Source: Ginglymostoma cirratum (Eukaryota). From it: a DNA stretch of 64,000 nt. Below are positions 10,051 through 61,361 of the stretch, piece after piece. The notes under the pieces were generated by a model. That model was given only the letters and a program-made list of their open reading frames with translations, had not been told where the DNA came from and did no database searches. Each line of letters begins with the position of its first letter. Position 1 is the first letter of the stretch. The stretch covers positions 38,300,717-38,364,716 of the forward strand of contig JAHRHZ010000139.1 in the NCBI GenBank assembly GCA_024137785.1, written 5' to 3'. The translations under genes and the position numbers were made by a program.

Positions 10051-10272
10051 AAAGCAAAATACTGCAGGTGCTGGAAATTTGAAATAAAAACAGAGAATGC
10101 TGGAGAAACTCAGCAAGTCTGGCAGCATCTGTGGAACATAGAAGACAGTAATATTTCATGTCCAATATGATGATACTTAAAGGCTCTTACCTGACTTGAA
10201 ACATTAACTCCTTCTCTGACTCCATAGATGCTGCCAGAGTAACTTCAGCGATTTCTGTTTTTAATTTTAGAG
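10051..10272. mobile_element. Two Penelope-like terminal fragments in inverted arrangement
   Basis: 10051-10170 is the reverse complement of the PLE tail seen at 44260-44368; about 10190-10272 is the same tail in forward sense (gaaacattaactc...agatgctgccaga). Confidence 0.7.
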
Positions 10273-15733: not shown

Positions 15734-15849
15734 AGATAAAACGTTGTGGAGCTGGATGAACACAGTAGGCCGAGCAGCATCAGAGGAGCAGGAAAGCTGA
15801 CGTTTCGGGTCGAGACCCTTCTTCAGAAAAATCTTCTGAAAAACCTTCT
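15734..15849 (-). mobile_element. 116-bp Penelope-derived mini-insertion with 12-bp TSD
   Basis: Flanked by perfect direct repeats gcccaagggaag (15722-15733 and 15850-15861); sequence matches the tails at 49290-49380 and 60840-60909. Confidence 0.85.
15795..15830 (-). ncRNA. Minimal type-I hammerhead ribozyme motif
   Basis: Minus strand reads CUGAAGA-A-GGGU-CUCG-ACCC-GAAACGUC: intact core, 4-bp stem II, palindromic ACGU minimal stem III, GUC site. Activity untested. Confidence 0.75.
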
Positions 15850-18429: not shown

Positions 18430-18565
18430 ACTTGTTCTGAGGAAGAGTCATACCTGAAATGCTAACTCTGTTTCCCTTCCTGCAGATGCTGCCAGACTTG
18501 TTGAGTTCCTCTCGCACTTCCTGCTTTATTGCGGATTTCCAGCGTCTGCAGTATTTTACTTCAAT
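18430..18565 (+). mobile_element. Penelope-like terminal fragment with decayed hammerhead
   Basis: gttctgaggaagagtcatacctgaaatgctaactctg...agatgctgccagact.g.tgagtt is similar to 44231-44350. Confidence 0.7.
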
Positions 18566-25685: not shown

Positions 25686-26745
25686 AAATAAAAACCAAAA
25701 GAACTGTGGATGCTGTAAATCAGAAAAACAGAAGTTACTGGAAAAACTCAGCAAGTCTGGCAGTATCTGGGAAGAGAAGTCAGAGTTAACTTTTTGGGTC
25801 CGATGACCCTTCCTCAGAACTGATGGTAGCTAGGGAATTGTCGGTTTATATGCAGAAGATAAGGTGAGGGGAGGGGGTAAGGAGTAATTGATAGGTGGCG
25901 ATAGAGCCCAAAGAGAGAGAAGAACAATTGGACAGACAAAAGAGTGGATAATGATCTGGCTAGGAGGGTGAATAGCTGATAATGGGGACTGTTAGTGAGT
26001 AATAGTAGGTAGTGTGTAGTGGCAGGCTACGTGATAACAAGGCCTAGTGTATAGGGTGGGCGCCTGGGACGTGGGAGAGTTCAGGCCCTAAAATTATTGA
26101 ACTCTAAATTGAGTCCAGAGTGCTGCAGGGTCCCCAAGCAGAAAATGAGATGCTGTTCTTCCACCTTGGGTTGAACTTTGCTGGAACACTACAGCAAGCC
26201 TAAGACAAAGATGTTGGCCAGGGAACACGTTGGTGTGTTAAAGTGGCAGGCAACAAGTAGCTCAGGGTCTTCTTTTTTTTGCAGGCAGAGAGTAGGCATT
26301 CTGTGAAGTGGTCCCCCAGACTCCCCAATGTTGAGGAGACCTCATTGTGAACAGCAAATCCAGTAGACTAGATTGTGTGAAGTGCAGGTGATGTTGCTTC
26401 ACCTGGAAGGTGTTTTTGGGCCCTTAGATTCCGGGGAGGGAGGAGGTAAATGGGCAGGTGTTACAACTTCAGTGGTTGCAGGGTAAGGTGCCGTGGAACT
26501 GTGGGAGTGGTGTTGGGAATGAAGGAAGAGTGAAGGGACAGCCTCTTTGAAAGGCAGACAAGGAAGGGGAGGGGAATATGTGTCTGGTGGCAGAGTCTTG
26601 CTGGAGGTGATGAAAATGGCGGCTGATGATCTTCTGCATGTGGATGCTAATGGGATGGTAGGTAAGGACAAGGTGAGCTCTATCACTGTTACAGGAGAGA
26701 AGTGAAGGTGGAAATCCAGGAGATGGGTCAGACCCGGATGAGAGA
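25686..26745 (-). mobile_element. Penelope-like element, GIY-YIG region plus terminal repeat, moderately decayed
   Basis: Reverse complement is colinear with 43464-44368; extra coding piece RAHLVLTYHPISIHMQKIISRHFHHLQQDSATRHIFPSP; mutated hammerhead at about 25785-25822. Confidence 0.9.
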
Positions 26746-29700
26746 ATTTCACTTAAGTGCTTCACTCGTAGGTGCCTGATCTGTTATGTCAACAAACATT
26801 TCCATCCAATAAGTGGTGGAGATGTCTACCAAAATGCATATTTGATAGGCACCCTATTGCAACGGTTGTTTAGGAAATTAGTCATGCAGTACAAATCCTA
26901 TTGCAGTTTTATGTGAACAGGCACTCAACTAGCTAGCACTTTTTTTTTTGAAAACATCACACATGTTTTCTTAGGACAGTTCCTTGATAATTTGGCAGTC
27001 TCAATGTTTTATGCATCTTCTAAGCACAGCATGCCCTTTCAAAATCAGAAAGGGTTACCTTACCTCCTGCAAAAGGATAGGGGAGAAACATTAAAACATT
27101 GCTCCAGCCATCACCCCCTCACCCTCTCATCCTCTCGCACCTCTTTAACCCTCATGACTCCCTATGACACATTCGTGTGAAGCCAAGCATCCTAATACCC
27201 TCTGCCTATTCCCCATAAACCCTCTTGACAATTTAGTGCCAACTTTTACCCTTTCCCCTTTCGCCGACAGTGCCAATTCAGCAAGTATTCACAAGTACCC
27301 ATGTAGACAGCAAAAAGTATAATTCTATGGCTTAACGTTCTGTATTAGCATATACTACGCTAGGAAAAAAAATACACGTTCATAAAAACATGTTTTGACC
27401 GGTTGATACTTGTTAACAGAGTGACACTTCTTGATTGTTTTTGAAAGGTCCTGAGAGGTTGGACAGTTTCAAATGGGTTCAATGAACCTTTTGCTCGGTC
27501 TTCTCCACAGTTCATAGTTGCAAAGGACATCTGACCCCCACAAAGGATTCCTGACCCCACCCCCCAGACTATCTGATACCTGCCCTCTCCAACCCAAGGG
27601 ATCCTTGACTACTAGCTCCAAGCTGGCCCAGCACAATACCTACAGGGTGCCTCACCTCTTCAAAGAGAGACCCTCGCTATCCAGAAGAAATGTACTGAGA
27701 ACAACCCTAGCCTCATCTCCACACTAGGGACTTCAAGACCAATGAGTGGAGTGAAGGCAGCTGGCTCCGGGTATTATTTATGTATGATGTACGGCCCAGC
27801 CCCAATTTCTAGCCCCTGAAAATATCGAGCTGTTGGATTTGTGAGCTGAACTTCGGTTTGCAACAGTTTCTGGCATTCTGTGCTTCAGTGGAGATGCTGT
27901 CATACCAAAAATCGTTCCCATGGTCTATACAGCTTCAGTCAGATCCCATGACAAATCATCTATTGAGTTGATTATTTATTTAGTTTTCTTATTTACTTTA
28001 TTGATAGCTCCATCACGCGAGATGTACGATCATTACCACTGGCCAACTCTCCTCCCAGCTTACACTGTTGCATTGTTTTCAGGGCTGCTGACCCAACCAG
28101 GTCAAACACAGGCAACAGCATTCACCTCTTGGTGACATTTCTTCAATTGAGGGTCTCAGTCGTATCTTCCAGGTGGATCTTCATCCTACTTCATCCACAC
28201 CAAGTCTCTTGCTATTTTTGGAGGTGACCAAGGTCACTTGACTGCTGCCAGGCACTCTATCTTGACCAATTGTAGCTAGAGCCAACTGCTCTTGTTACTG
28301 TGGCAGGGTTTAATAGCTGACCTGACTATAGCTGTTGCAGCTTTATGCTTGTCAACCTGAATTTTACACTCATTCAATTTAATGTGCAGAAAGTCAAAAA
28401 AACCTAGAGCTGTTAAGTTCTGAATCCATTAACGCTCCTGGATTCCAATTTCCTTGTTAGCCATTTGTGTGAGGGGATTCCTTGTTTGTATTCACTTTAT
28501 GTACCATTAGCCCCCACCATTTGCAGACATTAACTGACGGCTGAGAAAAGATTATTGGCTGCTTCCTGATTAAAGCTGTATTTATGCCTAAGCGTTCCCC
28601 TCACTCGCTGCCACTAATTCCCCTACCCCAGCTCTCAACCAAACCATTTCATTTCATTCCATGTTTTCATCATCTATGAAGTTGATCACTTTGCATTGAA
28701 TTGAGTTCTATCCAATTGATATAAATTGGAAACCGAGTGAGGTATTCAAGTACTGTTTGTCTGATATTCCACTTAGTACTTCATACACATGTATTACCCT
28801 GATAGCATTTAGAGTGCTTAAATTCCTAAAGTAATTGTTTTTCTCATAAAAATTGGCTTTTATCTCTGACAACATTTTACTGCCTAATTATTTTCATGTT
28901 TATGTCTAGTCTACTCTTTCTGTCCTACCCATGTTATCCTTGCTCATGACTTCAGCTTTGCATTTCAATTTTCAATGTAACAGTAAACTCCACCATTACC
29001 AGAACAGGTTTGCTCCCTCACACAGTGGACCCTCTGAGGGCTGTCACAAATAAGCTGTCTGCTATTGACCTGACCTTTCTAATAGTTGGTATGGATGGCA
29101 GGCCAGATGACTGAGAGTGTCGTCTCACTGCTTTTGAACAGTAATTAGCACTGCAGACTGTAAAGAACAATGATGCTTACCTTCCAGAATAGAGCTTTCC
29201 AATTATAGTGAACCCAGTAGGAGTTAATGATGAGAGACCATCAGTTTAAATTTGCCACTATGAGAGCAAGGAGAAATTTATTTTCAGAGTTGTTAGAGCA
29301 AGCCATGCAGAGATTAGTTAATATGGACTTTTAGAAGCAGATGATTTAGACGTGAAACTGAAGAAGAGTGGAATTCATTATGTATTGCATTAACAAAGAG
29401 CCAGTACAAGGACAACTTGGGCTCAATGGACTCCTCCAGTGCTCAACCTTGATAATTCTATGGAGATTTCTATACTGTAGTGTCTCCTTGAATTGATTTA
29501 CTGAACTCACAGTTTTACCATTTTACAGTAATGAAGCTATAATTGACATTAATCTCTGTTAGATGCCAAACCACATGAACAATTTGAGTTAATGAAGAAA
29601 TCTGAGAAACAGAAACATATTGGATCCAGTCAAATACACCTACAATCATGCTGCCATTTGATAATCTCAAAAATGATTGCAAATTATGCAAAAAAGAATC

Positions 29701-30559
29701 TGGCATCTCAGATTATTTCAGTGACTGACTTTGACTTTAAAATTATATGGAGTTTCTTCTTCCTGTTGTGGTCAGTGGGATCACAAAAGGATTAAATCAC
29801 ACAAATCTGTTGACAATTGTTTTTCACATGATTCATAAGATGTAGGAATAAGGCCAGCGTTCATTGCCTGTCCCTAACTGTACTTGAAGGTAAAGATGCA
29901 CAACTTTGTTCAATACAATGGAAGAGGGTTTGCAGGCCATTCCAGAGGAAAGTGTAGAGTCAATAACATCTGGGTCTGGAGTTGCACATCGGCCCGACCT
30001 GGGTAAGAATGCTAAATACAATACCCTAAAGGATATTAAAGAACCTAATGGGCCTTCAAGGCAATCACCTTGACTGAGACATTACTGATCTTAACATTGT
30101 AGGTCAGACCTTATTTAAAAAACTGAAATCAAATTCTTTAGCTGCTTTGGTGAGATTTAAATCTTTCCCGGATTATTAATCCATGTCTCTGGTAATATAA
30201 CTACACTGCTATTCTACCCCTGCAAGAATATTTTTATTTGAAATTATTTACGTTAAATTCAGAAGAAGGTGCTTTGCAAATATATGGATTGTTTTGAAGT
30301 AACTTGAAGGTTTGATGGATCTTTGCACATGGAGTGAGAGTAGTTAAATTGTATCAAGTCTACGTTCTGTGTGGAAGTTTTCATAATACACTGTTTGAAA
30401 TAATGATATGAAAGGTTGTCAACTGTTCTTGTTTGAGTTTTGATAATATTTAGCATTTACATTTGAGATTGAAAGGTGTATCACTAAACTGCAGGCGTCT
30501 AGTATTCTGAATATTTTAGTGAGATGATAAGCTCATGGTAAACTCTCTTTGTTTTCTAG

Positions 30560-30876
30560 AGCGCCAACTCTGTATAACGATGGCTGGCTCGAGCACCCTG
30601 CCATCCAATGTGACTGGCATCAGCAAGGAACTGGCAGACCTTCGACACCTAATTCAATTCCCTGAAGAGATTGCCAGTATTCTGACCGAGCAAGAGCAGG
30701 AACTCTATCGTAAGGTCTTACCACTTGACTACCTCTGCTTCCTGACCAGGGATTTAGCGAATCCAAGTTGTTCCAATAGGTCATCACCACTCAAGACCTC
30801 CACATCAGCACCCACTTTCAGCGACGCGAATGGGGAACACAATGCAATTGAAGATCTTGTGTCAAGATTCAATGAG
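30560..30876 (+). CDS. PLCE1: PLCE1 internal coding exon (start of CDC25/RasGEF region)
   Basis: Acceptor ctctttgttttctag|AG, donor GAG|gtaagc; 317 nt, phase 1 to 0. Translation [65 protein letters not shown]...[13 protein letters not shown] matches my recollection of vertebrate PLCE1 (GISKEL..L..LIQFPEE.ASIL...[10 protein letters not shown]). Confidence 0.95.
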
Positions 30877-31267
30877 GTAAGCTGATGCTTCGCTTCTACC
30901 TCAACATAGATACAATTTTATTTCACTGGCTGAAGCTGGTGGCTTTTTAAATTCATTTGTGTGATGTGGGCATCACTGGCTGGCCAGCATTTATTTCCCA
31001 TCCCTAGTTGCTCTTAAGAAGGTGGTGGTGAGCTGCCATCTTGAACTGCTGCAGTCCACATGCTATACAGGAGAACTTGCAGGTGGCGGTGTTCCTGTGA
31101 ATCTGCTGAACTTGTCCTTCTAGACAATGCAGGTAATGAGTTTGGAAGGTGCAGTCTAAGGATCTTTGGTGAAAGATTTGATTAAACTTGACTTGCTGCT
31201 GTTGAAAGTTTGAGCAGTTGAAGTCACAAACCTGATCCCATTCTACCTCCATTTTCACGAGTGTGTT

Positions 31268-32920: not shown

Positions 32921-33710
32921 ATAGACAATAGACAATAGGTGCAGGAGTAGGCCATTCGGCCCTTCGAGCGAGCACCACCATTCATTATGATCGTGGCTGA
33001 TCATCCACAATCAGTATCCTGTTCCTGCCTTATCCCCATAACCCTTGATTCCATTATCTATAAGAGGTCTATCCATCTCTTTCTTGAAAGTATCCAGAGA
33101 CTTGGCCTCCACTGCCTTCTGGGGCAGAGCATTCCATATATCCACCACTCTCTGGGTGAAGAAGTTTTTCCTCAACTCTGTTCTAAATGGCCTACCCGTT
33201 ATTTTTAAACTGTGTCCTCTGGTTCTGGACTCACCCATCAGCGGAAACATGCTCCCTGCCTCCAGAATGTCCAATCCCTTAATAATCTTATACGTCTCAA
33301 TCAGATCCCCCCTCATCCTTCTAAACTCAAGTGTATACAAGCCCAGTCGCTCCAACCTTTCAACATATGACAGTCCCGCCATTCTAGGAATTAACTTCGT
33401 GAACCTACGCTGCACTCCCTCAAAAGCAAGAATGTCCTTCCTCAAATTTGGAGACCAAAACTGCACACAATACTCCAGGTGCGGTCTCACCAGGGCCCTG
33501 TACAGCTGCAGAAGGACCTCTTTGCTCCTATACTCAATTCCCCTCGTTATGAAGGCCAGCATGCCATTAGCTTTCTTCACTGCCTGTTGTACCTGCATGC
33601 TTGCTTTCATAGACTGATGTACAAGAACACCTAGATCTCGTTGTACTTCCCCTTTACCTAACTTGACTCCATTTAGATAGTAATCTGCCTTCCTGTTCTT
33701 GCCACCAAAG
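32921..33710 (-). mobile_element. Young 5'-truncated CR1 LINE with open ORF2 C-terminus
   Basis: ORF 33011..33721: RDLGVLVHQS...LYRALVRPHLEYCVQFWSP...GDLIETYKII...FFTQRVVDIWNALP; tail (aatagac)n. Confidence 0.95.
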
Positions 33711-36169
33711 GGACTTCTCACAAGGGAACTGGTAAATATACTGCTTTTGGTTTACTACACTGTGCAATGTCAAATATGTTTCTAATTACTAGTAATGATG
33801 TTCCATAGTTGTTGCAAGGAAAATGGAGTATTTTCTCCTGGAACTTTGTTTTGTCCTGTACCATAATAGTAACAATTGTGCTCATGTTTGGTTTTGTTTA
33901 GGATCCATAGCACAATTTTAGCATTTGGAAAATGTTAACAATGAGAAATTACATATTTTTGAGTCAAAATGCATTTATATTTCTTTTGGTTTTATTTGAA
34001 ATAGTGAGGTATGTATAAGTGGCTGACAATATCCTGAGGAACTGATATGGATGGGTCACATCATTTGTTTTAAGTTATGGTGAAACCTCAGAAAAACCCT
34101 TTGCCTCCGATTAGTTTTGTATGTTTTGCAATATCGTTGCTATGACAGCAAAAGATGAATATTACCAGAGTAAAAAGCTACTCAAATGTCAGGCATAGCT
34201 TTATTGCTGTAACATGACACCTAAACACAATTTTATGAATACTTCCATGTCAAATTCTGCTTCAACTTTTATATTCTCTCCTAACTCTGTCAGTGTTAGT
34301 TTTATTTTTACCACTTTGAATTATTAGTATACACCATTCCTTCTGTACTCCTTGTAATAAAAACTGAAGCCCTGATTTTAACTTAAGTCTGCTCTCCTGC
34401 CAGGAATGGATGAGAGTGAGTTCTGGTCTGATGCCTGTTTGAGACTTCGTCGAAAATTCTCTTTATCGAACACAGCAACGTGGAAAATTGGATGGTGTGT
34501 GAAAGGGACCTGTGACCTGGACCTGTTATTCTTTGTTTTCATCCAGCACCATCATTCTGGGAGGTGGTAGAACTATATTTTTATAAGTCAAGCATTTTTT
34601 TTTATTGGTTGAAGTCCAGCCTAAATGTAGGACTGTGATCAGGTCATTCTTTAATGCCCGTAACTTAATGTACAAGAATGTTTGGCCCTTTGACAAAGTT
34701 TGAAAAGTAAAATCCTCTGTTCTTCTGGAAGAATTAAAATTTCCTGTTATGTGACATTAGGTCACTCTTGTTATAAACCCTGAATGACCGCACTCAGTTG
34801 GGGGTCACTGTGACCCAAACTCTGTGATTTCATCAGTAAGTAATGTCCAAAAATAATTAAGGTTAATTTATCTGAATGGCAGGACTAGTCACATTGTCAT
34901 GTGCCCAGGGTTTCTTCTACTCTTCTAAGTTTTGTAAGATTTAACCTTTCTTACGGAGTGACAAAATTGGAAATACATATTGATATGAGGTCATGATTGT
35001 ATAGGCAGATTTACCCCAACTTCTCGCTACCTCAGGGGTCAATGCAAGGTGACTGTACCATAAACTCTTTGCCCAGGCTCCCCACGCTGTCACCATTGCA
35101 AAGGCACCATAGTTTGATCACACCTGTCTCCCCTATCTCCAACCCCTACCCGTCAACTAGTAAATAAAGTCAGTCTTTAATAGCTATCCTTTTTAATAGA
35201 TATCCTGAATTTGATTACATCATATGGGCAGTTTAAAACTCAAAATACAACACAATGTTCACCTCTATCGTTCTCCCGTTGTTAAAATGGAGTCAAAACC
35301 CTTTAAGTAAACAAAGTTTACCGTCACCCCCAAGAAGCTGTCAAAGGGTACTTTCTGTTCCCTGAAGAAGTGCACAGTTAACATCTGTTTAGTCTCCACT
35401 GTTATCCTGGATAATTACAGGTTGGAAGTAAATGTATATACTCTACTCTCTGCATACCAGCTTTTCTTCATGGCCGGTTTTCAGGTCTTGTCAGCTTTTT
35501 ATAAATCTCAACCATTAAATAGCACTCAAGGGGAGAGGTGGAACAGGTTGACTGACTCTCTCAGGGTTGAGCAGAGCTTTTTCAGTCAAGGCACTGTTCT
35601 GACTCTCCAAACCAAACTCCTGCTGAGCTGAATGCAAGACTCCTTTCATATGAACAAATTGCAAGTGGGCAGAAATGTGTCTGAAGCTGCATGTGACATC
35701 TTTAATGCCTCAATTTCACTGCAAAATCAGGCAGAAAAGGTTTCTAACGTTGGCTTCAGACCTGTCACGGCAATGTAGTTTTGCTGATGTTAAGATTGAA
35801 CCTAGGTTAAGGTCCCCAATAGGGATCACGTTGGCTGCAGTTAACACGTCATTGGCTTACATGCTGCCTCGTATGGAAGGGAGGTGCATAGAAAGAGGGC
35901 CCCAGCCTGGACCAATTCAGGTAACCCTCAAGCATCAGCTGGGGCTTTGGTCATCTGTAGCTGAAGGTTTTCAGATGATGTCTTGCTGTAGGGGAGGCTG
36001 GGGTATCGAGTCAGAGGAGATAGTAATGTGGCTGACCACAGAAGAAAATTTTTTTATAAAAACCCTCCCGTTCAGGTCCGAATTAAAACATTGGTTGGAG
36101 CCTGATGATGTATTAGTTTCTAATTTGAACATTGTAAGGAAAGGCCCCACTGCCTTCACATAGTTAGTT

Positions 36170-40555: not shown

Positions 40556-40688
40556 GTGTTCTGGGGGAGAGCCACTCGGCCCAAAACGTTAACTCTGATT
40601 TCTCTCCACAGCTGCTGCCAGACCTGCTGAGCTTTTCCAGCAATTTATGTTTTTGTTTTTGATTTCCAGCATCCACAGTTCTTTCGGA
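40556..40688 (+). mobile_element. Penelope-like terminal fragment with decayed hammerhead
   Basis: gttctgggggagagccactcggcccaaaacgttaactctg...gctgctgccagacctgctgagcttttccagcaa matches 44231-44360. Confidence 0.8.
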
Positions 40689-43463
40689 TCTTAAAGTGTC
40701 AGCGTGATCCAGTTGCTGCATGCTTGCCTCTGAGCTAGAAAGGTTTAAATCCAGTTTGTAGACCTGAGCAGATGATGTTAGGCTGACATTGTTAATGCCC
40801 TCCCAGCCACCCCTGAAGGAATGGCCAGATGTGCCTCTTTTTGGGTGGAACATTATACCCAGTTGCTCAAGTGGATGTAAAAAAAAAAATCTCCATGGCA
40901 TTATTCAAAGTGGAGGCTAGGAATTCCACCAGGGGTCTGGTTAACTACTGTCCTTCAGCCCAGAGCACCAGATTAAAGTTGACCAGGTCATTGATCCCAT
41001 AACCGGGTAAATGTCTTCGGAATCAGTTCCAGGAGAGAAGATGAATCCTGCATTATGGAGGCAATTTGATCCACTTCGCCCTGGCCCCTTTAAGAAATAG
41101 AAGTAAGCAGATTTGTCTTACAGCCGAAGTCGTTTAGATCTTGTTTACATTTTGATCACTGGGAAATTTTATAGCAAGCATCCAAACACAGATACAAAGT
41201 AACAGTAATGGAAAACTGTAAAATACAATGATATAAGTCATCCCTTGTCTAAATGTTGCCACTGCCGGGGAAGCAATGTTAGTTGAAAAAATAAATAAAA
41301 GAAATTACAATTAAATTGTAAAACATGACCCTTTGTTTCTGGGGGTGCTGAGAAAGGTAGTTTTTAAATAACCCACAATCTTGCGAGCAGAAGCTAGCTT
41401 GAAGCCTGAAAACTTGTGGCTGCAGCTAATGGGTTGGCATTCCTGAGAACTGCAGAAAACAGCAATATAGGCTGAATGATCCTCCCAATAGTTCGGTGGG
41501 TAAATATTCAGCTTTTAGTGTGGCAGTGCTGAGTCGTTGACATTGTTAATTACAACCCCCCCCCCCCCCCCCAACCTCTAAAGGAATGGCTAGATGTGCC
41601 TGTTTTTGGGTGGAACATTATACCCAGTTGTTCAAGTGGATGTAAAAAAATTGTCATGGCATTACTCAAAGCGGTGGCTAGGAATTCCACCAGGGGTCTG
41701 GTTAACTACTGTCCTTAGGTAGGATAGAACCCAAAGGTTCCCTTCTATCTGTGCTGAATGAGACTCAACAGGTGAGCTCCTGGGATCATCTTTAGTTCCG
41801 TTCACCAGGTTAGGCAGAGATCACTGATACAGCAATTTATTAACCGCTACCTGCCTAGGTTATCAGATGAACACAAGATCAGACTTGAGTGGGAAATTAT
41901 TGTTGTACCGTAAACAAGGAGTTGAGGCCTTGGGAGAGGGAAGCAGTCGTTATACAAGAGTTACTGCCTTCAGCAAAAGATCAATGGGAAATGAAAACCA
42001 GAAACTACTTGTAGATATATGGTAGTTGGATAACAATTTGAAGAAGGAATGATAGATTGCTAGAAAAATAGCTATAACTACTGGCTAGGCTCATGCTGTG
42101 TTCACAATTAAGGTATGTGTAGTTTGTGGAGGATAAAAATGGAGCACCCTGGTCAAATAGTAACCATTTGTCACCTTAATAACATTTGTTGACATGATGC
42201 ATATTTACACCTCTATGGGGCGCTATATAATATGGAAAATACTGGCAAATGGGACTAGATTTATTTAGAATACCTGGTTCGCATGAACAAGTTGGACCAA
42301 AGAGTCTGTTTCTGTGCTGTACATCTCTGTTTCTATGATTATTTGATCGTCTTCTAGATAAAAAGGGGAATTATGTGCAGCATCAACAGCAGCGCATCTA
42401 CACTGCACTGAGTGACCTGTTTCTATGCAGTTAGTACCGTGTCATCTAAACACTATCAGCCTGGGCCTGCACTATGAGTGTGAATAAAGTTGCTCCAACC
42501 ATCCTTTCTCCATCCCTCCAACCACAACCCCAGCCTTACCACACTCAACCTGGACTCTAGATAGCCACTCTAGCCTCTCAGCCCCCATTCTTTGCCCCAT
42601 TATTACCAATTATACCTTCAGCTACTTCGATTCAGCACTCTGAATCACTTCCCTTCACCCCCTTGCCCCTTGGCTCCAGCAGCCTCCTCTCTGTTAAGAC
42701 TGTCAGTGAAACCTATCGTTAGTAAACTTGAGGTCACCCACCCTGATATCTCCTCTGCTGACATGATACATATTTACACCCCTGTGTGGCACTATATAAA
42801 TGCAACAAATAGCTGAGATGAATGCACCTAGGTTTCTGTGGTCTTTCAGATTTTGGACCAAAGTGTCAGCTTCCTGACTTATTTCAACTAAGGATATGGA
42901 ATGTGGAAGGAAAAACAGGGACAAAAGAGTGAAACCTGTAGGTTGGTGTAGTGTACAAGCTGCGTGTGATGGCAGGATGGAAAATGTGCCTGTAGTTATC
43001 AAAGGATATGTACCGAGGCTAAACTCTATTGCAGGGTGAACTGCCAAGCTGATTATCGAAGCAGCTGACTTATATATCAGAGATGAAATAATTTCTGCAT
43101 TTTTAGTACTTAAATCCTTAACTGCAGAAGCGATAAATGCCAATGTTGCAAGGAGCAGCAATTTATTTCATGAATAATTGTAAATTGCCTCATCATGACC
43201 AGCTGTAGCTTTATGTCTGCGGGACTGCTTTCATCCAGTGGATGAGTTTATCTGAACATCAGGTTGAACAAAGGGCAGCGAACTGTAATGAACTTCACTG
43301 TGCCAAAAAACTCACTGTAGCCTGTTGTGCATTGTCTTGCAGTTTTGGACCTTATGTGTTTACCTATGAATGGTATATCCTGCTTGATTTTGATTGACTG
43401 TGGTTCCTCTATCGTTCACCCATATTAACAAGACACTTACCATCAGCAGCTAAGGTTATAACT

Positions 43464-44368
43464 TATTCCCCTCCCCTCCCTTGTCTGCCTTCCGCAGCTA
43501 CCGTTCCCTCCAGGACACCCTGGTCCACACTTCCTTCACCCCCAACACCTCCCCACAGCTCTATGGCACCTTCCCCTGTAACCGGCGAAGGTGCAACACC
43601 TGCCCATTTACCTCCTCCCTCCCCGGTATCCAAGGGCCCAAACATACCTTCCAGGTGAAGCAACACTTCACCTGCACTTCCCAGAAGCTAGTCTACTGCA
43701 TTCGCTGCTCTCAATGTGGTCTCCTCTACATAGGAGAAACAAAGTGTAGACTTGGCGACCGCTTTGCAGGACATCTACGTTCTACTCGCAATAGAGACCC
43801 TGAACTGCCTGTTGCCTGCCATTTCAATGCACCACCCTGCTCCCTGGCCAACAGCTCTGTCTCTGGCTTGCTGCAGTGTTCCAGTGAAGCCCAACGCAAG
43901 CTGGCGGAACACCACCTCATTTTCCGCTTGGGGACCCTACAGCCCTCCGGACTCAGTATTGAGTTCAACAATTTTAGGGCCTAAAATCTCCCATGTCCCA
44001 GCCCCCCACCCCACACACCAGGCCCTGTTACCACAGAGCCTGCCACTACACACCCCTTGTTGTTAGTCACTAACAGCCCCCATTAACAAGTATTCACCCT
44101 CCCAGCCTAATTGTTAGCAACTCCCCAACTGTCTTTCTCTCTCTTTTGGGCTCTATCCTATCGTTTACTCCCTACCCCACCCACCTCCCTATTTTCTGCA
44201 TATAAACTGACATTTTCCCAGCCACCATCAGTTCTGAGGAAGGGTCACTGGACCCGAAACGTTAACTCTGTTTTCTCCTCCACAGATGCTGGCAGACCTG
44301 TTGAGCTTTTCCAGCAACTTTGTTTTTGTTCCCGATTTACAGCATCCGCAGTTCTTTTGGTTTTTATT
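43464..44368 (+). mobile_element. Young 5'-truncated Penelope-like element (Neptune-like) with open GIY-YIG endonuclease frame and 13-bp TSD
   Basis: ORF 43481..43984: C.RRRCNTC, LVYCIRCSQCGLLYIGETKCRLGDRFAGH...VACHF...E.HLIFRLGTLQPSGL; perfect TSD taaggttataact at 43451-43463 and 44369-44381. Confidence 0.93.
44230..44267 (+). ncRNA. Minimal type-I hammerhead ribozyme motif
   Basis: AGUU-CUGAGGA-A-GGGUC-ACUG-GACCC-GAAACGUU-AACU: stem I AGUU/AACU, 5-bp stem II, palindromic ACGU, GUU site with predicted cut after 44263. Confidence 0.8.
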
Positions 44369-46604
44369 TAAGGTTATAACTATTTTGGCTTGAAAAGTGG
44401 GCCGGATTGGCTATGTCCTCTGATACTGTCACTCATTCGTGGCCCTGTTCAGCTGCTGTACAGACGGCTCGATGATGTCTGCTTGCAAGAATGCGAGTTG
44501 TGGCACCAGTGGTCACTCCGAGTAAGTGTTCTGGCTCAATGTACAGCAAAGGCGGATCGCTGCCAGAAATACAGAAAATATTGCTGGAAGGTCAGTACAC
44601 ATTTGAACTCTGACAAAAGTTTTCTGCAGAACGAGGAGCTATGAGAAAATAGTGTACTGGCCATCAATAGTGATTATATGAGGGTAAAGGAGAGCAAGCC
44701 ACTTAGCTGATGAAACAATTCCTTTTGACAGTCAGTTTAACTTTACCTAAAGTGGTGCAGTCCACTCAGTCCTTTTGATCTGCTTATTGTGGTCCCATCT
44801 ATTCAATTACCTTATTAGAGACTAATTTACTCAATCCACTCGGTTTTCCTTTCATGGTCTAATCTGCTCACTCAATTCTATCTCTCTGGGACCACAGCCT
44901 GGACGGCTTTGGGCCTTATTATTCAGGCTCAGGCCACACAAGCTACTTGCAATGGCTTACCAAGAATGTGCCATAAGTGGTTACAGACCATTTTCTATGG
45001 AATTAAATCCGTAACATTACTTTCCAAGCAGTTTTAATCCATCATTACCTTCCTGAGTGTATGGTACACAATGATTTTTGTGGAGGTATACACGTACACA
45101 GTACATTACCTGTGTGCGTGTACAAGTACACAGTGAATTCTCGATCATGTATGGGAGACACAGCGAGTGTCCCATGGTGTACAGGGGTCCCAGTAATACG
45201 TTTGGGATGAGTGGACAGGCAGTTTCCTGAGGTAAATGGGGACACTGAACTCAGTCTCTGCTTTCATGTTTATGAGCTATATTGAAATCCTGCTGAGACC
45301 ATCTGTCTCCCCTGTTCTCCTGTGAAATATGCTCAGGCCTTCTGAAAGTAGCTTGTTGCAAGTTTCCTCCTGCAGTTGACCTCTCAGTTCCTGCTGACCC
45401 TAAGTCAAAATTCGATAAGAAATAAAGGAAAAATCATAACATGAAAGATCTGTTCTCTTGAAAACTGACCAGCCAGCCATGATTTTCGATGTGTTTTAAA
45501 AGTTTTAGGGAAGTGTGTTGATCTGTTTGTTCAGTTACCCATTCCTGACCTGATAGTGGTGGATACATACTTTGAAGATGTTGAATAATGAAGTTGCGTT
45601 TTTGATTATGGGATCAGTAAGACCAGCCTGTCTACATAAACTGAGCGACTGCCAGCTTGTTCCATTTAATTGTCATGAAATTTGGTGCCTACTGCTTTTC
45701 TATAAACATCCTGCTTTTGAACAGCTGCTTCTTAACTGTGGTCTTAGCCCCATGACAGCGTCTCTCCCAGTTTGTGATGTTTTGCTGTCCTGTGTAAGTG
45801 AGGGCAGGGTTAGGGTGCACGTGTTAGGATGGGGTAAGGATATGCGTTGTCTGTACCTCAACTTGGGGCCTGAAACTGACCTTGGACACGGTTGTCTGTA
45901 TGAAGTGATCGCCTCTCTGATATCATATCACAAGATCAGGTCGCGAGGGCTTGTGATAAGTAGTATTTCCTGATGTCCTGTTCACCACCTCATCCACGTG
46001 GCACTGAAGGAGATCGGTAAGAGTCTTACCCACTGAAGACTGGGGAAGGAACGAGCCAGCAGCTGTAGGAACCAGCAGCAAGTGGGAAACAGGGGCCACT
46101 TTGATCTTTAAAATAATATTGTCGCCCAGCACAGCGGTCCCTGAACAGTTTTCATTTCACGGCTGGATGGAAGGCTACTTGAGATTTGAGTCCATCAAGT
46201 ACTGTGTTGTCTTTGTTCAATATTGTCTCATGTACATACGAGGTTACCTCAAAACCTAATGGTTCTCTTTTATTACCATAGCAGCCTGTTCCGTAATGTT
46301 TACTATAATGTGGGTAATTGCCTTTTAACCTTGTGTTGTACAGTGTTCATTGCCTTCTGGGTCATCTCTCTAAATCTTAATTTAAAAAAAGAAAGCACCT
46401 TTCCAAATCTGTCAGTTCATTTTTGTTGTTCAAGTTCATTTGAATTGCAGACAAGTTGACATTGGGGCTCTAGTTTTCTGTGATGGTCCTCCCAAAGTGA
46501 GTCAGGTAGTGTGTTTTCTGTGAGTACACTGTCATGGCCTGGGGGACGTCCTGAATGTGACCACCACTATAATGGCAATGCAATTGTGTTTTTCTGTTGG
46601 TCTG

Positions 46605-46990
46605 TGCAGGGAAAAAGATTAATGAAGACAGATGTGGATCACAGTCAGAAACAAGAAGTTATAATGAGGAACAAAGAGATGGCAAGCCAGTTAAATCTCT
46701 ATTTTGGCTCCATTCACAAAGGAGGGTATAAATATCATCCCAAAAATGTTGGGAAACAAATGGTCCAGTGAGTGTGAGGAACTGAAGACAATCAGTAGGA
46801 GTATGGAAAAAAGCTGTTCGGGAAATGGTTAGGAATGAAGGCTGATAAATCCCCAGGTTAAGCTACATCCCAGAATACTTAATCAAGTGGTCCTAGAAAT
46901 TGCAGATGCAATTTCCAACCAGAAACGTCAACTTTCCTGCTCCTCTGATGCAGTCTGACCTGCTGTGTTCCTCCAGAATTATAGACTGGT
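46605..46990 (+). mobile_element. CR1 internal fragment carrying a short PLE tail piece (about 46920-46978)
   Basis: IMRNKEMASQLNLYF and gaaggctgataaatccccagg (KADKSPG) CR1 motifs; gaaacgtcaactttcctgctcctctgatgc matches the PLE tail. Confidence 0.7.
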
Positions 46991-48074
46991 TAAAGACAAA
47001 GAACACCTTGCTGAAGCTTAAATTTACATCAGCGTTGAAACAGTCTAACTAACGCGAAGAGACTTAAAACGATAACTATTATCCGTCACACAGCATGACC
47101 AAGCATCGGAGGGTGAAAAGGGAAAAGTTGCAGAAGGCTTGGAAAAATTCTGTGCAGAGACAGTCAATATTCTCATGCAATTGAGCCAACAAGTGAGATA
47201 TTGATGGAGGAAAAAGACTCCCCTTCACTGAAATATTCAAAGTCCCAAGATTAGCTGAGGAAAAAAAAATTACTACAATCAGTGAGTGATGATATTGGGT
47301 TTGAAGGTGAAACTCTGGAGAGGACGAGAAGGAAAGTCTTTGTTTAAGCTGAGAACACTGTTGGAGACTCATGGTTCAAGTGAAAAGAGACCTGTGGTGG
47401 CGGGAGGTCACGTAGAAAAAAGCAGTTAAATGTTCATGGCGAAATGCAAATGGTTTAATAATAGAACTGAAGGGTGGGGTTGGGGAGGAGGAGATGTGCA
47501 GTAAGGGGGTAATTATACCTTTTAAGAATAGTGACTGAGGTATGTGGAAGGGCCTATGTCAGATTTAATGGAGCTGGAGCTTGAATCTGCTGGCTTCCAG
47601 AAGATACAGCTACAGTTCCTTGTATAGTCTTACGTATAATAAAGTCTTACAATATTCAGTCCATAAAGTGCAAACCTGATGTTACTACAATAACCTTTGT
47701 TGCTTGATTTAATTGGTGAGTTTTTGGATTAGTGTCCACTTAGGAAAATTCCTCAGTATGAGAGACCTGAATCACAACAAAGGAATGTAAGTTCTCCTGT
47801 CTGATTTAGGTGGGGACCTCGCTTCCACAACTGAATAGCCTCATGAAAGAGTTTATCAATTGGAGATTTGTGGTGAGGGAAAGCTTTACAGTTTTGCATT
47901 CCTTTTTTCTCCCCACTTAATGCATTGGGAACTGGGAAGGACAGAGTTTTAGACAGTGGAAAATGAGCCTGAGTGCTTCCTACGTTGTACCTGGCTGTCA
48001 GACTAGATATAAACTTTAACAAAGTGCTTATTTTACCTTTTTCTTGTGAATGTACTTCACAGGTTCAAGCGTCT

Positions 48075-48505
48075 ACTTGTTGGCAGCACTCTCGCCTCTA
48101 AACCACAAAGTCGTAGGTTCAAGTCCCTCTACAGTCTTAAACACATCATCGAGGCTGATATTTCAGTTCAGTACAGTACAGAATCTGCAGCATTGTGGAT
48201 GTAACATCTTTCCGATGAGACATTACAGCATTTCCTTCTGTCTGAGTGTAAAAGATTCTATAATGCCTTTTATTTGAGTATAAGTAACAAATTCTCCAAA
48301 TGTCCTGACCAACATATTCTTCCTTGACGAACACTGTAAATAGTAGACTCAGTGGTCATTATTTTATTAGTTGTTTGTTGGATCTTGCTGTGTGCAGATT
48401 GGTTGTTCGAGTTGCTTCATAATGTCTGCAATTCAAAAGCGATGAATTGACTGTGAAGTGTCTGAGGTTATGAAAGGTACCTTCTAAATGTGAGATCTTT
48501 CTTAG
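48075..48505 (+). mobile_element. Deu-domain SINE
   Basis: gcactctcgcctct...gtaggttcaagtccc head and a Deu-like body as at 6310-6695. Confidence 0.7.
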
Positions 48506-49196
48506 CTCTTCTTTAAAAAGCCACTCATGTTCTAGGACCTATTTAGGAATCAAGACAAATGCAGATCCTTGCCTATCCACAGAACATTGCTGATTCTTCT
48601 AGTCAAATGGATTGTTGGGAAGAGAACTGATGCAGAAAGATCTGCACTCAGAACCCACAACAAAATGGAATATGTTGGGATTTAGGGGTAAAATTCACTA
48701 GAAAGGTAAACCATGTAAGGTGTCTAAGAGCTGCATGATCTGCTACCGTCCATATTGCAGAATTTCACTCTGAACGATGCTTGTGTGGAATTTATTTGTT
48801 TTCACGGACGCTGGCCTCCATTCCAGTTGGCCTGTTGTTCTCTGGGCCATAAGTGAAGTCTTCAGGTCGAGGAAGTAAACCAATTCATTAAAGCTTAGGT
48901 TGTGTGTATTTGACACTGTCGAAGGTCCCTAGGTTAGGGTCAGTTTTGAACTTGTCTTCTGGGGTGATACCCTGACACAGCAACACATCTGTCCACTGTA
49001 GAACCTGACACATTTTTAACTCATCGAAACCAAGAGAACAAAAAAATTGGTAGATTCTACAATAGGCTGGTGGACTACTTTTTCAGGTTATAAAATTAAA
49101 AATAACTACCTTGGCATCCAAACGTAGAGGGCTGTTTCAGCTTAGTTTTTGTAACCTTGTTTAGTTCTCCCATTATGAAAACTACACCAAACATGT

Positions 49197-49383
49197 CTGC
49201 CTCCTCTCCAGCTATCCTCTCCTCCATCCATCCTCTATCCGCCTCCCCCTCTCTCCCTATTTATATCAGAACCCTCTTCCCCTCCCCCATTTCTGATGAA
49301 GGGTCTAGGTCCGAAACGTCAAGCTTTCCTGCTCCTATGATGCTGCTTGGCCTGCTGTGTTCATCCAGCCCCATGCTTGTTAT
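49197..49383 (+). mobile_element. Penelope-derived short insertion containing a hammerhead motif (49293-49320)
   Basis: CUGAUGA-A-GGGU-CUAG-GUCC-GAAACGUC followed by the tail ctttcctgctcct.tgatgctgcttggcctgctgtgttcatccagc, shared with 15734-15849. Confidence 0.8.
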
Positions 49384-50214
49384 AGGAAATACTTCTGACT
49401 TGACTAATTTTTAGCAAAAAATGCATTTGCAAATAGAATTGCAGGTTATATAATTAGAACGATTAATGGGTATGTCCACACTTAGCATCACCCTAATGAT
49501 TGCTACCCTTCCAAAAGTGGACTATTGGGAGAACCAGGGGAAAATGTCAATTTAAATTCTTAAAAGTCATTTGTGGAAGGTGATGTGCCACAGTTAGGAT
49601 TGAAGAGAAATGAGCATCTTCCTCCAGTTCACAGTTGTACTTTGTGAGGTGAACTGAAGGGAAAATTTCAAGTATAACTTCACCCAGTGTCACAGATCAG
49701 AAGCGAATATATTTTGTTTATTTCCTATCTGGTGGTGTTAGCAAAAACCATTATGTTTTTGAGCATCTATAATTGACCTCTTGAACTCGTATTTCTGTGA
49801 CTATGTTCTCACATTGCCCTTCGACAGGGAATCACAGGATCTCAACCCAGCCAAATTGTAGGATCAGCAATCCATATTGAAAAGACCAGGCTTATTAAGT
49901 TTCAGATCACTGGTGACCCCAGGTCATCATTAATGGTGGAGGACTCCACGATGGTGGTGCCATGAGGGGGAGGATCGACAGAACTTGAAATTAAAAAGCA
50001 GCGTTCACGTTTTCAGGGCATTGGCAAGTACTTCAATACAATTAAACTATTTGAAGTCTAATGATTGTTGTAAAAGCAAAAGGTCAGGCAATTTATAAAC
50101 ATCAAAGTCCATGAATAACAGTGAAACAAAACATTCAGAATCTATTTTTTATAGTTTTAGGTGGGGCGGGTGAAATATTGACCACAAAACATGCACCAAT
50201 CTAGAAAAGTGTCA

Positions 50215-50425
50215 TTGTTTCAGAAGGCTGAGTGTCTTTGGAATTCCTTGCTACAGAGAGCTGTCAGGACAATGTATATTTAAGGCTGAGACAGATTCTT
50301 GATTGGTAGGGGCATCAAGGGTTACAGTGGAAGGACAGGAAAGTGGACGTGATGAGTTCAGATCAGCCATGATCCCATCAAGGGGCCAAAGGCCTATTTC
50401 TTCTGGTCTACGTGATCCTAATGTT
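50215..50425 (+). mobile_element. CR1 LINE 3' fragment
   Basis: ctttggaattccttgctacagagagctgt...tttaaggctgagacagattc...agatcagccatgatc. Confidence 0.7.
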
Positions 50426-50769
50426 TCACGGTTGAGGCTCTCCATGTATTATCTCACCCAAAACATGGCAACTTTAGTATCTTACTGTCTTTTTACACTT
50501 CTCTCTCTGGAGTAGGGCTTCAACTTGTGATTGTTAATGAAACAGAAGATTTGTCAGCACCGTTAACCAGATAGTTGTACAGTATATCCTGCAATGAAGG
50601 AAATTGTATTGTACCATATAACTGGCCCCTCACATTAGCAATGATGGCAGGGAATGTGAGTCATTGTCTAAATTAGGTATATCACTTTGTGTGGAAATGC
50701 TGTGCAAGCCAAGCTGGTAAATAATTTACTTTAATGTATAAAAGTAGTAATTTGGGAGGACAGAAATTG

Positions 50770-51648
50770 AGCATTGCTGATGAAAGACACACCTTGAAGA
50801 TTTTGTCATGCACTCATCAGGACAATTCGTAAGAACACCAGTTCAGGTGGAAAACCACTATATATACTGCATGAGAGGAGAGGGCTAGCAAGTTGTCTCT
50901 GACTAGTTGAGGCATGACCATGGAGAATGCAGCCATTAATGCCGATTGACAGTTAATTGTCAGACTTTGTCCCAAATTTAACCCGAGTAATTTTGCTCTG
51001 ATTTAGCCAGGGATTTGCCCAGAGAAATGAATTACAGGGCCGGTGTGCTCAGGTATGTGGGCTGTATATCTCAAAGATTGTTGGATTTTAACAAACAGTA
51101 TATCCCTTCAACTATTCATAACAAGAAAATATACAGACCATGCCCGACTAAGCTTTGCTTTCAAAACTTGCGACATTGTGTCCGACTGTGGTTAGATGTG
51201 ACTGTGCAATTGGACAACACTTGCTGAATAATTCTGAGTGTGTGAGGAATTACACTGATGACAATTTAGGATTGTCAGTTGAGCTTGTAGTGCAGTGCAC
51301 CTATTTGGACTGGAAGCTACGTATTAATATGAGAGATCCTGTTCTTGGCATGTGTTTCAACCCAACAAATTAGGAGACAGCTATTTGTTGGTTTATTTTG
51401 CAGGGTACTGTCCTATCCAAATAGAGTCAACCTGCCTGATTTAAAATTTAAAGAATGCCAAATAGTTAATTGTCTATTGGCATTAATAGGCGCATTCTCC
51501 ATGGCAACACCTATGTCAACCAATGAGCACTCTGTATTGTTGAGCAATATAAATGTTGTTTTTCTCTTGAATTGGCATTTCTTGTGAATTGCCCTGATGA
51601 CCGCAAGACGAAAAGCTTTGACAAAATGTGCCTTTTTTCAGCAATACT
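50770..51648 (+). mobile_element. Second Penelope-like family: GIY-YIG remnant between ~250-bp inverted terminal repeats
   Basis: Frameshifted RYVGCISQRLLD..KQYIP and CDCAIGQHLLNNSEC..NY; 50773-51010 is an imperfect reverse complement of about 51410-51645 (attgctga/tcagcaat; ccatggagaatgc/gcattctccatgg). Confidence 0.85.
51589..51624 (+). ncRNA. Minimal hammerhead motif (second family), partly mutated; antisense twin at 50794-50825
   Basis: UUGCC-CUGAUGA-CCGCAAGAC-GAAAAGCUUU-GACAA; the twin reads UUGUC-CUGAUGA-GUGCAUGAC-AAAAUCUUC. Their consensus gives stem I UUGUC/GACAA, stem II GU/AC and palindromic AAGCUU. Confidence 0.65.
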
Positions 51649-52506: not shown

Positions 52507-52731
<225 letters not shown>

Positions 52732-60838: not shown

Positions 60839-61361
60839 ATAACAAGGTGTAGAACTGGATGAGCACAGCAGGCCAAGCAGCATCAGAGGAGCAGGAAAGC
60901 TGACGTTTCNNNNNNNNNNNNNNNNNNNNNNNNNNNNNNNNNNNNNNNNNNNNNNNNNNNNNNNNNNNNNNNNNNNNNNNNNNNNNNNNNNNNNNNNNNN
61001 NNNNNNNNNNNNNNNNNNNNNNNNNNNNNNNNNNNNNNNNNNNNNNNNNNNNNNNNNNNNNNNNNNNNNNNNNNNNNNNNNNNNNNNNNNNNNNNNNNNN
61101 NNNNNNNNNNNNNNNNNNNNNNNNNNNNNNNNNNNNNNNNNNNNNNNNNNNNNNNNNNNNNNNNNNNNNNNNNNNNNNNNNNNNNNNNNNNNNNNNNNNN
61201 NNNNNNNNNNNNNNNNNNNNNNNNNNNNNNNNNNNNNNNNNNNNNNNNNNNNNNNNNNNNNNNNNNNNNNNNNNNNNNNNNNNNNNNNNNNNNNNNNNNN
61301 NNNNNNNNNTCTACACCTTGTTATCTCAGATTCTCCAGCATCGGCAGTTCCCACTGTCTCT
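60839..61361. mobile_element. Penelope-derived insertion with inverted ends spanning the assembly gap
   Basis: agataacaaggtgtaga (60837-60853) and its reverse complement (61310-61326) flank the Ns; near-TSD atatt[g/t]tatcacag at 60825-60838 and 61362-61375. Confidence 0.8.
60910..61309. other. Assembly gap (400 N)
   Basis: Run of N characters. Confidence 1.

Follow-up and report, generated by a model that had tools for sequence, protein, structure and literature searches.

Minimal hammerhead motifs from repeat insertions in a shark PLCE1 intron, probable passengers of the host transcript

Minimal hammerhead ribozymes (min-HHRs) have been described in the end repeats (pLTRs) of Penelope-like elements (PLEs) of many animals, mostly as single motifs, and their monomers are given there as inactive and their dimers as cleaving weakly, for the most part at Mg2+ concentrations that are non-physiological (Cervera and De la Pena 2014, PMC4209133). 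The PAc hammerhead of the Poseidon element in Anolis is reported to cleave only with the protein of the element, with RNA-seq ends absent at its site (Frangieh et al. 2024, PMC11167929), and eight of nine retrozyme dimers are reported without cleavage (Li et al., bioRxiv 10.64898/2026.07.22.740005). Slow ribozymes in introns are said to leave splicing intact (PMC10919898 and PMC2995048, citing Fong 2009 and Dye 2006), the half-life of the CPEB3 ribozyme being 2-3 min (PMC10919898). Here we analyse three hammerhead motifs on the sense strand of one intron of PLCE1 in a 64,000-nucleotide stretch of the Ginglymostoma cirratum genome (contig JAHRHZ010000139.1, positions 38,300,717 to 38,364,716, hereafter the window). 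Judged from their sequence and surroundings, they are very probably inert passengers in the PLCE1 pre-mRNA, left by separate repeat insertions that are likely all Penelope-like.

Three cores and the repeats that carry them

The window was scanned for CUGAnGA, GAA, a palindrome and H17. Zero-mismatch cores were found at three sense positions (starts 44234, 49293 and 51594) and one antisense position (15826), which bears out a sequence-only reading that had placed three sense-strand CUGAnGA...GAAA cores in one PLCE1 intron. Its intron limits and strand are confirmed by tblastn exon matches and by the GT and AG at the two ends, and its predicted cuts agree with the motif layout found here. The features concerned, in window coordinates, are as follows.

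44230..44267, + strand: minimal type I hammerhead, family A; stem I of 4 bp (AGUU/AACU), stem II of 5 bp, ACGU palindrome, GUU triplet, predicted cut 44263/44264
49290..49323, + strand: minimal type I hammerhead, family B; stem I of 3 bp (one U.G), stem II of 4 bp (two wobble pairs), ACGU palindrome, GUC triplet, predicted cut 49320/49321
51589..51624, + strand: hammerhead-like core, family C; AAGCUU palindrome, UUU triplet, stem II broken, stem I mismatched
43454..44372 (edges approximate), + strand: 5'-truncated Penelope-like element, family A; end of an open reading frame (ORF) with a GIY-YIG remnant (43454-43981), then the end repeat
49196..49388, + strand: short family B insertion, end repeat only; edges taken from the empty site in a relative, organism B
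51465..51648 (edges approximate), + strand: older repeat, family C; inverted 69% identical copy at ~50770-50956
30559..30876 (5' edge approximate), + strand: PLCE1 coding exon upstream of the intron; tblastn with ray PLCE1 protein residues 102-209, 81% identity
30877..52578, + strand: PLCE1 intron of 21,702 nt, GT at 30877 and AG at 52578, with consecutive coding exons on either side
52579..52725 (3' edge approximate), + strand: PLCE1 coding exon downstream of the intron; ray PLCE1 residues 207-256, 98% identity

The host gene was identified as PLCE1 from its exon query, whose best match was the ray protein; its coding exons were located on the + strand of the contig between 38297070 and 38439590. 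In all three sense copies the CUGAnGA and GAAA halves of the core are accompanied by U16.1 and H17, the latter being U at 44263 and 51619 and C at 49320, and the place of stem III is taken by the palindrome. The motif at 44230..44267 is the best preserved of the three. Against an expected stem I of ~4-5 bp, the copies at 44234 and 49293 have 4 and 3 bp, and that at 51594 has 1 bp followed by a C.A mismatch at the second pair. Stem II had been read in all three motifs, which holds for the first two, where it is closed by a G10.1-C11.1 pair (one unpaired base often precedes the stem), and fails for the third, where the closing positions are an unpaired C.C, C.A and G.G. Twelve of twelve other family C copies have two pairs at this place, although they were selected by a pattern fixing these letters. 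The 49293 copy departs from the exact family B pattern in stem II, and in a 150-nt context the predicted probability of this stem is 0.00, compared with 0.93 at 44234.

An Rfam scan of the window with E values up to 10 gave eight weak matches, none of them a hammerhead; minimal forms presumably lie outside the reach of the Rfam models. Between families, stems I and II carry compensatory changes: the covariation score was reached by 1 of 500 shuffles, and slid controls scored far lower, a weak result given nine aligned related sequences.

The three motifs belong to the end repeats of three separate insertions, each from a different repeat family, and all three families are likely Penelope-like retrotransposons. 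In families A and B, a GIY-YIG ORF upstream of the hammerhead end repeat gives the EN+ arrangement, the published layout of endonuclease-bearing PLEs (PMC8557442). The remnant in the family A ORF of the window lies under the curated Pfam cut-off (E 0.0024). Elsewhere, GIY-YIG exceeds this cut-off in four of eight ORFs upstream of such motifs (loci L006, L020, L071 and L153), with a weak reverse transcriptase match in one and nothing relevant in three; the L006 ORF lies ahead of both a family B and a family A motif. Together with the published min-HHR layout, these ORFs support the assignment of the motifs, in the sequence-only reading, to the minimal palindrome type carried by PLEs. Family C is likely of PLE origin as well, and no ORF of at least 150 aa was found upstream of its motifs in the sampled loci. 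Inverted arrangements recur: the family A element has an inverted paralogue at ~25686-26581, family C forms an inverted pair (50770-50956 and 51466-51648), and an inverted element piece stands at the 5' junction in 7 of 25 family B loci starting at the predicted cut.

Some further observations concern these repeats. A fourth hammerhead family (L044, L119, L152 and others) has a stem I of 5 bp, a stem II of 6-7 bp, ACGU and GUC, and one sense copy of it lies further down PLCE1; beside the L152 motif there is a weak RVT_1 match only, no search for full-length copies having been made. Just past the hammerhead, the family A end repeat resembles a 3' splice site (window 44259-44289: UUAAC, which we take to be a branch point, a pyrimidine run, and CAG followed by AUG). 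Sense family A copies could act as cryptic acceptors, though orientation bias is unseen. Hundreds of contigs from two runs of organism B have loose ends just before 44230-44231, which indicates that the 5' arm of stem I is where many family A copies begin, as also seen at loci L004-L015.

Eight more copies bring the window to six sense and five antisense hammerhead-repeat copies.

40558..40693, + strand: decayed family A end repeat, core broken (repeat comparison)
46922..46976, + strand: family B fragment without the CUGAnGA half (repeat comparison)
18434-18552, + strand: decayed copy (repeat comparison)
10051-10164, - strand: antisense copy (repeat comparison)
15747..15829, - strand: family B copy, core intact, in the previous intron (core scan and repeat comparison)
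25686..25821, - strand: family A end repeat, core mutated (core scan and repeat comparison)
50770..50870, - strand: family C copy within the same PLCE1 intron (core scan and repeat comparison)
60855-60909, - strand: family B copy (repeat comparison)

The first two correspond to the decayed or partial sense copies noticed earlier near 40560 and 46920, and the third is additional to them. The earlier statement that all motifs lie on the transcribed strand is true of the three named cores and is selective, five antisense copies in the window, one of them in the same intron, having been overlooked. A 400-base run of N (60910-61309) interrupts the last copy at its hammerhead, and a local duplication of ~160 nt, 90% identical, occurs at 40798-40955 and 41563-41716, 765 nt apart.

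Pairing of the two ACGU motifs

The sequence-only reading went further and proposed that the motifs at 44230 and 49293 pair in cis through their ACGU palindromes and cut the intron co-transcriptionally. A min-HHR dimer is described in a figure of PMC4209133. In such a dimer the cut strand and its stem I arm come from the partner, because the A15.1-U16.1 pair joins the two copies, and stem I therefore forms across the partners, so that the shared ACGU provides stem III only. Between the two PLCE1 motifs, the AGUU arm of 44234 makes 2 bp with AAGC before a G.G, and the AUUU arm of 49293 makes 2 bp with AACU before a U.C. The energies of the designed dimers are -17.3 kcal/mol (44234 homodimer), -0.2 (heterodimer) and +7.7 (49293 homodimer), and the heterodimer is 16 kcal/mol less favourable than its two monomers folded separately; only the ranking of these designed dimers is informative, because none is the predicted cofold minimum. 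The standard loop formula puts the closure of a 5-kb loop at ~13 kcal/mol, of which 4.1 is already counted, leaving roughly 9 extra for the tether. The palindrome and stem I arm are predicted to be unpaired with probabilities of 0.016 and 0.009 in a 200-nt context. Once past the second motif, the polymerase reaches the 3' splice site after only 3,258 nt, which is under a minute of transcription at the mammalian rate quoted in PMC10919898. The family C palindrome is incompatible with that of families A and B.

We compared the intron with that of organism B, a relative whose unique intron sequence is about 96% identical and which is represented by two runs of one study. In each run a single contig joins 49195 to 49389 and so lacks the 193 nt of the family B insertion that holds the 49293 motif. 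The family A element is likely at the same site in both, because a contig runs from the element tail (44343) into unique flank. The family C repeat (51465..51648) is present at the same site, the letters of its stem II not being resolved there. Another run (X1), RNA by guess only, gave six short intron contigs with 0-1 differences; neither ends nor strand were shown, and it was not used.

The cross stem I of 2+2 bp, the energy of the heterodimer, the absence of one partner in a close relative, the lack of a sense-copy bias (below) and the lost stem II of the 51594 copy all speak against the split-ribozyme idea, and we conclude that there is no support for a heterodimer or for a role in PLCE1.

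Orientation, abundance and start sites of copies

Orientation was counted in 175 stretches adjoining exons of PLCE1, of 19 glutamate-receptor loci and of 43 RhoGEF loci, together with the window, amounting to 63 gene loci and 1,715,516 called bases, with strand taken from the exon matches. Three loci were left out before the count: a compact iGluR locus (C172) and two of RhoGEF, C261, close to the end of a contig, and C91:12.28 Mb. This sample showed no orientation bias of cores (62 sense, or 61 distinct since the iGluR17 motif at 27554/27566 was counted twice, vs 63 antisense); neighbouring copies are non-independent. The numbers are equal for cores with a stem II of at least 3 bp (41 and 41) and close for intact 11-nt cores (58 sense and 56 antisense), as they are for BLAST copies of family A (89/90 sense/antisense), family B (109/102) and family C (8/6); PLCE1 contributes five sense and six antisense cores. 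Core mismatch rates are likewise similar between sense and antisense copies (0.093/0.081 in family A and 0.032/0.039 in family B), and CpG positions decay fastest (0.13-0.40). The sampled genes thus show neither an excess nor a depletion of sense copies. At 0.52 sense motifs with stem II per 21.7 kb, two or more are expected in ~10% of such introns, and three sense motifs at the loose level in 4.5% of them. By title and abstract, we found no paper on the intron orientation of PLE hammerheads or on cut-truncated copies, and the supplements of PMC4209133 may list shark motifs.

A separate observation from the same loci concerns a LINE 3' fragment at 33011-33751, which we take to be CR1-like: its family is commoner sense than antisense to host genes (66 vs 38, p 0.008, matches non-independent).

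Across the 4.36-Gb genome, exact patterns matched 5,507 times for family A, 79,500 times for family B and 91 times for family C, evenly on both strands, and reversed controls gave 0. For family C, a pattern with the letters of the window copy matched the window itself only, and the 91 come from a second pattern. Families A and B together thus supply no fewer than 85,007 exact hammerhead motifs, or one in every 51 kb. What has been measured here is a null: at least 85,000 exact hammerheads in a vertebrate genome, with equal orientations in the sampled genes, which argues that lone minimal hammerheads cut pre-mRNA too little to matter.

In a young family B subfamily (54,133 exact matches), we counted copies whose four upstream letters all differ from the element. 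Copies starting at the predicted cut numbered 303, compared with 56 and 105 at 3 nt upstream and downstream, an excess of about 3-5 times, or by our own arithmetic ~2.5-3.5 fold after pass rates and A/T microhomology; the copies in excess are <2% of the 54,133 read-through copies. The first 25 loci at the cut comprise 16 that abut unrelated DNA and 7 that abut an inverted element piece, one with a one-base insertion and one at a gap. In a local family A sample, too small to be informative, 0 of 21 copies start at the cut. The excess would fit occasional cleavage of element RNA, of which it is a weak hint, and it fits stalling of the reverse transcriptase at stem II too; three positions cannot separate the two.

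Competing explanations and known systems

A mechanism for the passenger reading can be proposed. Truncated reverse transcription would copy the 3' end repeat most often, and most insertions would therefore carry a hammerhead. A motif without its own stem III would need a partner copy whose stem I arms match, and would probably require the protein of the element too. A lone intronic copy would have neither, and would therefore be transcribed, spliced out and degraded while decaying neutrally.

Several points weigh against this reading. The 44234 copy is structurally complete, and its stem II is predicted to form in context. Energy models score hammerhead junctions poorly, to the extent that even the family A homodimer is not the cofold minimum. 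The absence of the family B insertion in organism B leaves room for a species-specific role. That the sampled stretches lie within genes is an assumption based on one or two exon matches each, and a mild bias, by our own arithmetic under about 15% for all copies and 30% for intact cores, is compatible with the data. Cores with both stems of at least 4 bp number 19 sense vs 14 antisense (p 0.49, not significant), and palindrome-compatible pairs within 6 kb number 7 sense vs 4 antisense, which is not significant and is no depletion.

That the matches to short hammerhead words arose by chance might be argued from the failure of Rfam to match them and from the 37 CUGAnGA words present on the + strand of the window alone. 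The sampled 1.72 Mb contain 125 core matches against 6 in one shuffle, and 77 against 0 when both stems are required. This contrast and the stem covariation refute the idea for families A and B, and we regard chance as practically ruled out. Cis pairing of 44230 and 49293 across 5 kb, cutting the intron during transcription and tuning PLCE1 output, can point to two sense motifs with intact cores and ACGU in common, and to the precedents of Clec2 genes, with their split hammerheads, and of the intronic ribozyme of CPEB3 (PMC6765202, PMC10919898). If true, it would be something new, unrelated insertions assembling a ribozyme on a host transcript. For the PLCE1 pair the evidence is against it: besides the short cross stem, the occluded strands, the brief time before the splice site is made and the partner missing in organism B, six further sense pairs of this kind occur in the sampled sequence, among which the PLCE1 pair ranks with the weakest. 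We find this explanation hardly credible. As a separate observation, in a glutamate-receptor locus (L112:9307 and 9671, contig C218) two family B hammerheads, both sense and intact, are spaced by 364 nt and have a cross stem I of 4+4 bp, which by sequence makes them a much stronger candidate for a cis dimer than 44230 and 49293.

An alternative is low-level cutting of intact intronic copies, 44234 for example, by a partner RNA from the same family acting in trans; the element protein would assist in cells where the element is active, and the effect would be too small or rare for selection. The full 4+4+4 homodimer helix of 44234, the protein-assisted cleavage described for the Anolis element (PMC11167929) and the start-site excess, as a hint of cleavage of element RNA in the germ line, are in its favour. 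However, the sampled genes show no bias against sense copies; the excess is small, could be explained by A-rich microhomology or by stalling of the reverse transcriptase at stem II, and relates to the element RNA of family B and not to host RNA; and present expression of family A is without support. We consider such cutting unlikely. A wider version would have shark Penelope hammerheads cut RNA in germ cells with the element protein as chaperone, the start-at-cut excess being a fossil of this. During element activity, the protein and family RNA could also nick host pre-mRNAs wherever an intact copy lies in an intron, PLCE1 44263/44264 being one of tens of thousands of such sites. This we offer as a long shot. 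The passenger reading accordingly remains the one we prefer.

The closest described relatives are the min-HHRs of PMC4209133, with which the PLCE1 motifs share the type I form without a stem III of its own, the palindromic 15.2-16.2 positions, the short stem I, the unpaired base before stem II, the G10.1-C11.1 pair, the occurrence mostly as single motifs of truncated elements, and close opposite-strand pairs. Stem II is shorter here (4-5 bp vs 7-8 bp), the shark families are missing from the taxa listed in the consulted parts of that paper, and its counts for Xenopus tropicalis (~9,000) and coelacanth (~4,000) compare with at least 85,007 here, by differing search methods. PAc (PMC11167929) also comes from a vertebrate GIY-YIG PLE with a pLTR hammerhead and insertion at AT-rich DNA; unlike the present families, which are known from sequence alone, its cleavage has been assayed, being protein-assisted and dispensable for insertion. 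In having a ribozyme motif on the sense strand of a host gene, PLCE1 resembles the CPEB3 HDV-like ribozyme, the amniote intronic hammerheads and the split hammerhead of Clec2 (PMC10919898, PMC6765202). However, the CPEB3 ribozyme is conserved among mammals and self-cleaving, whereas the PLCE1 motifs are multi-copy and decaying, one is lineage-specific and none folds alone; and in Clec2 two halves build one ribozyme, whereas here two whole, mismatched motifs must swap strands. A split ribozyme of the host should have both parts at the orthologous site, and parts complementary enough for an active fold; here 49196-49388 is absent from organism B (two samples of one study), and the cross stem I stops at 2+2 bp. 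Non-LTR retrozymes (bioRxiv 10.64898/2026.07.22.740005), reported in one chondrichthyan, likewise carry PLE-related type I hammerheads, in tandem units of 51-972 bp unlike the dispersed single end repeats seen here. The PLCE1 motifs are an ordinary example of a motif already described.

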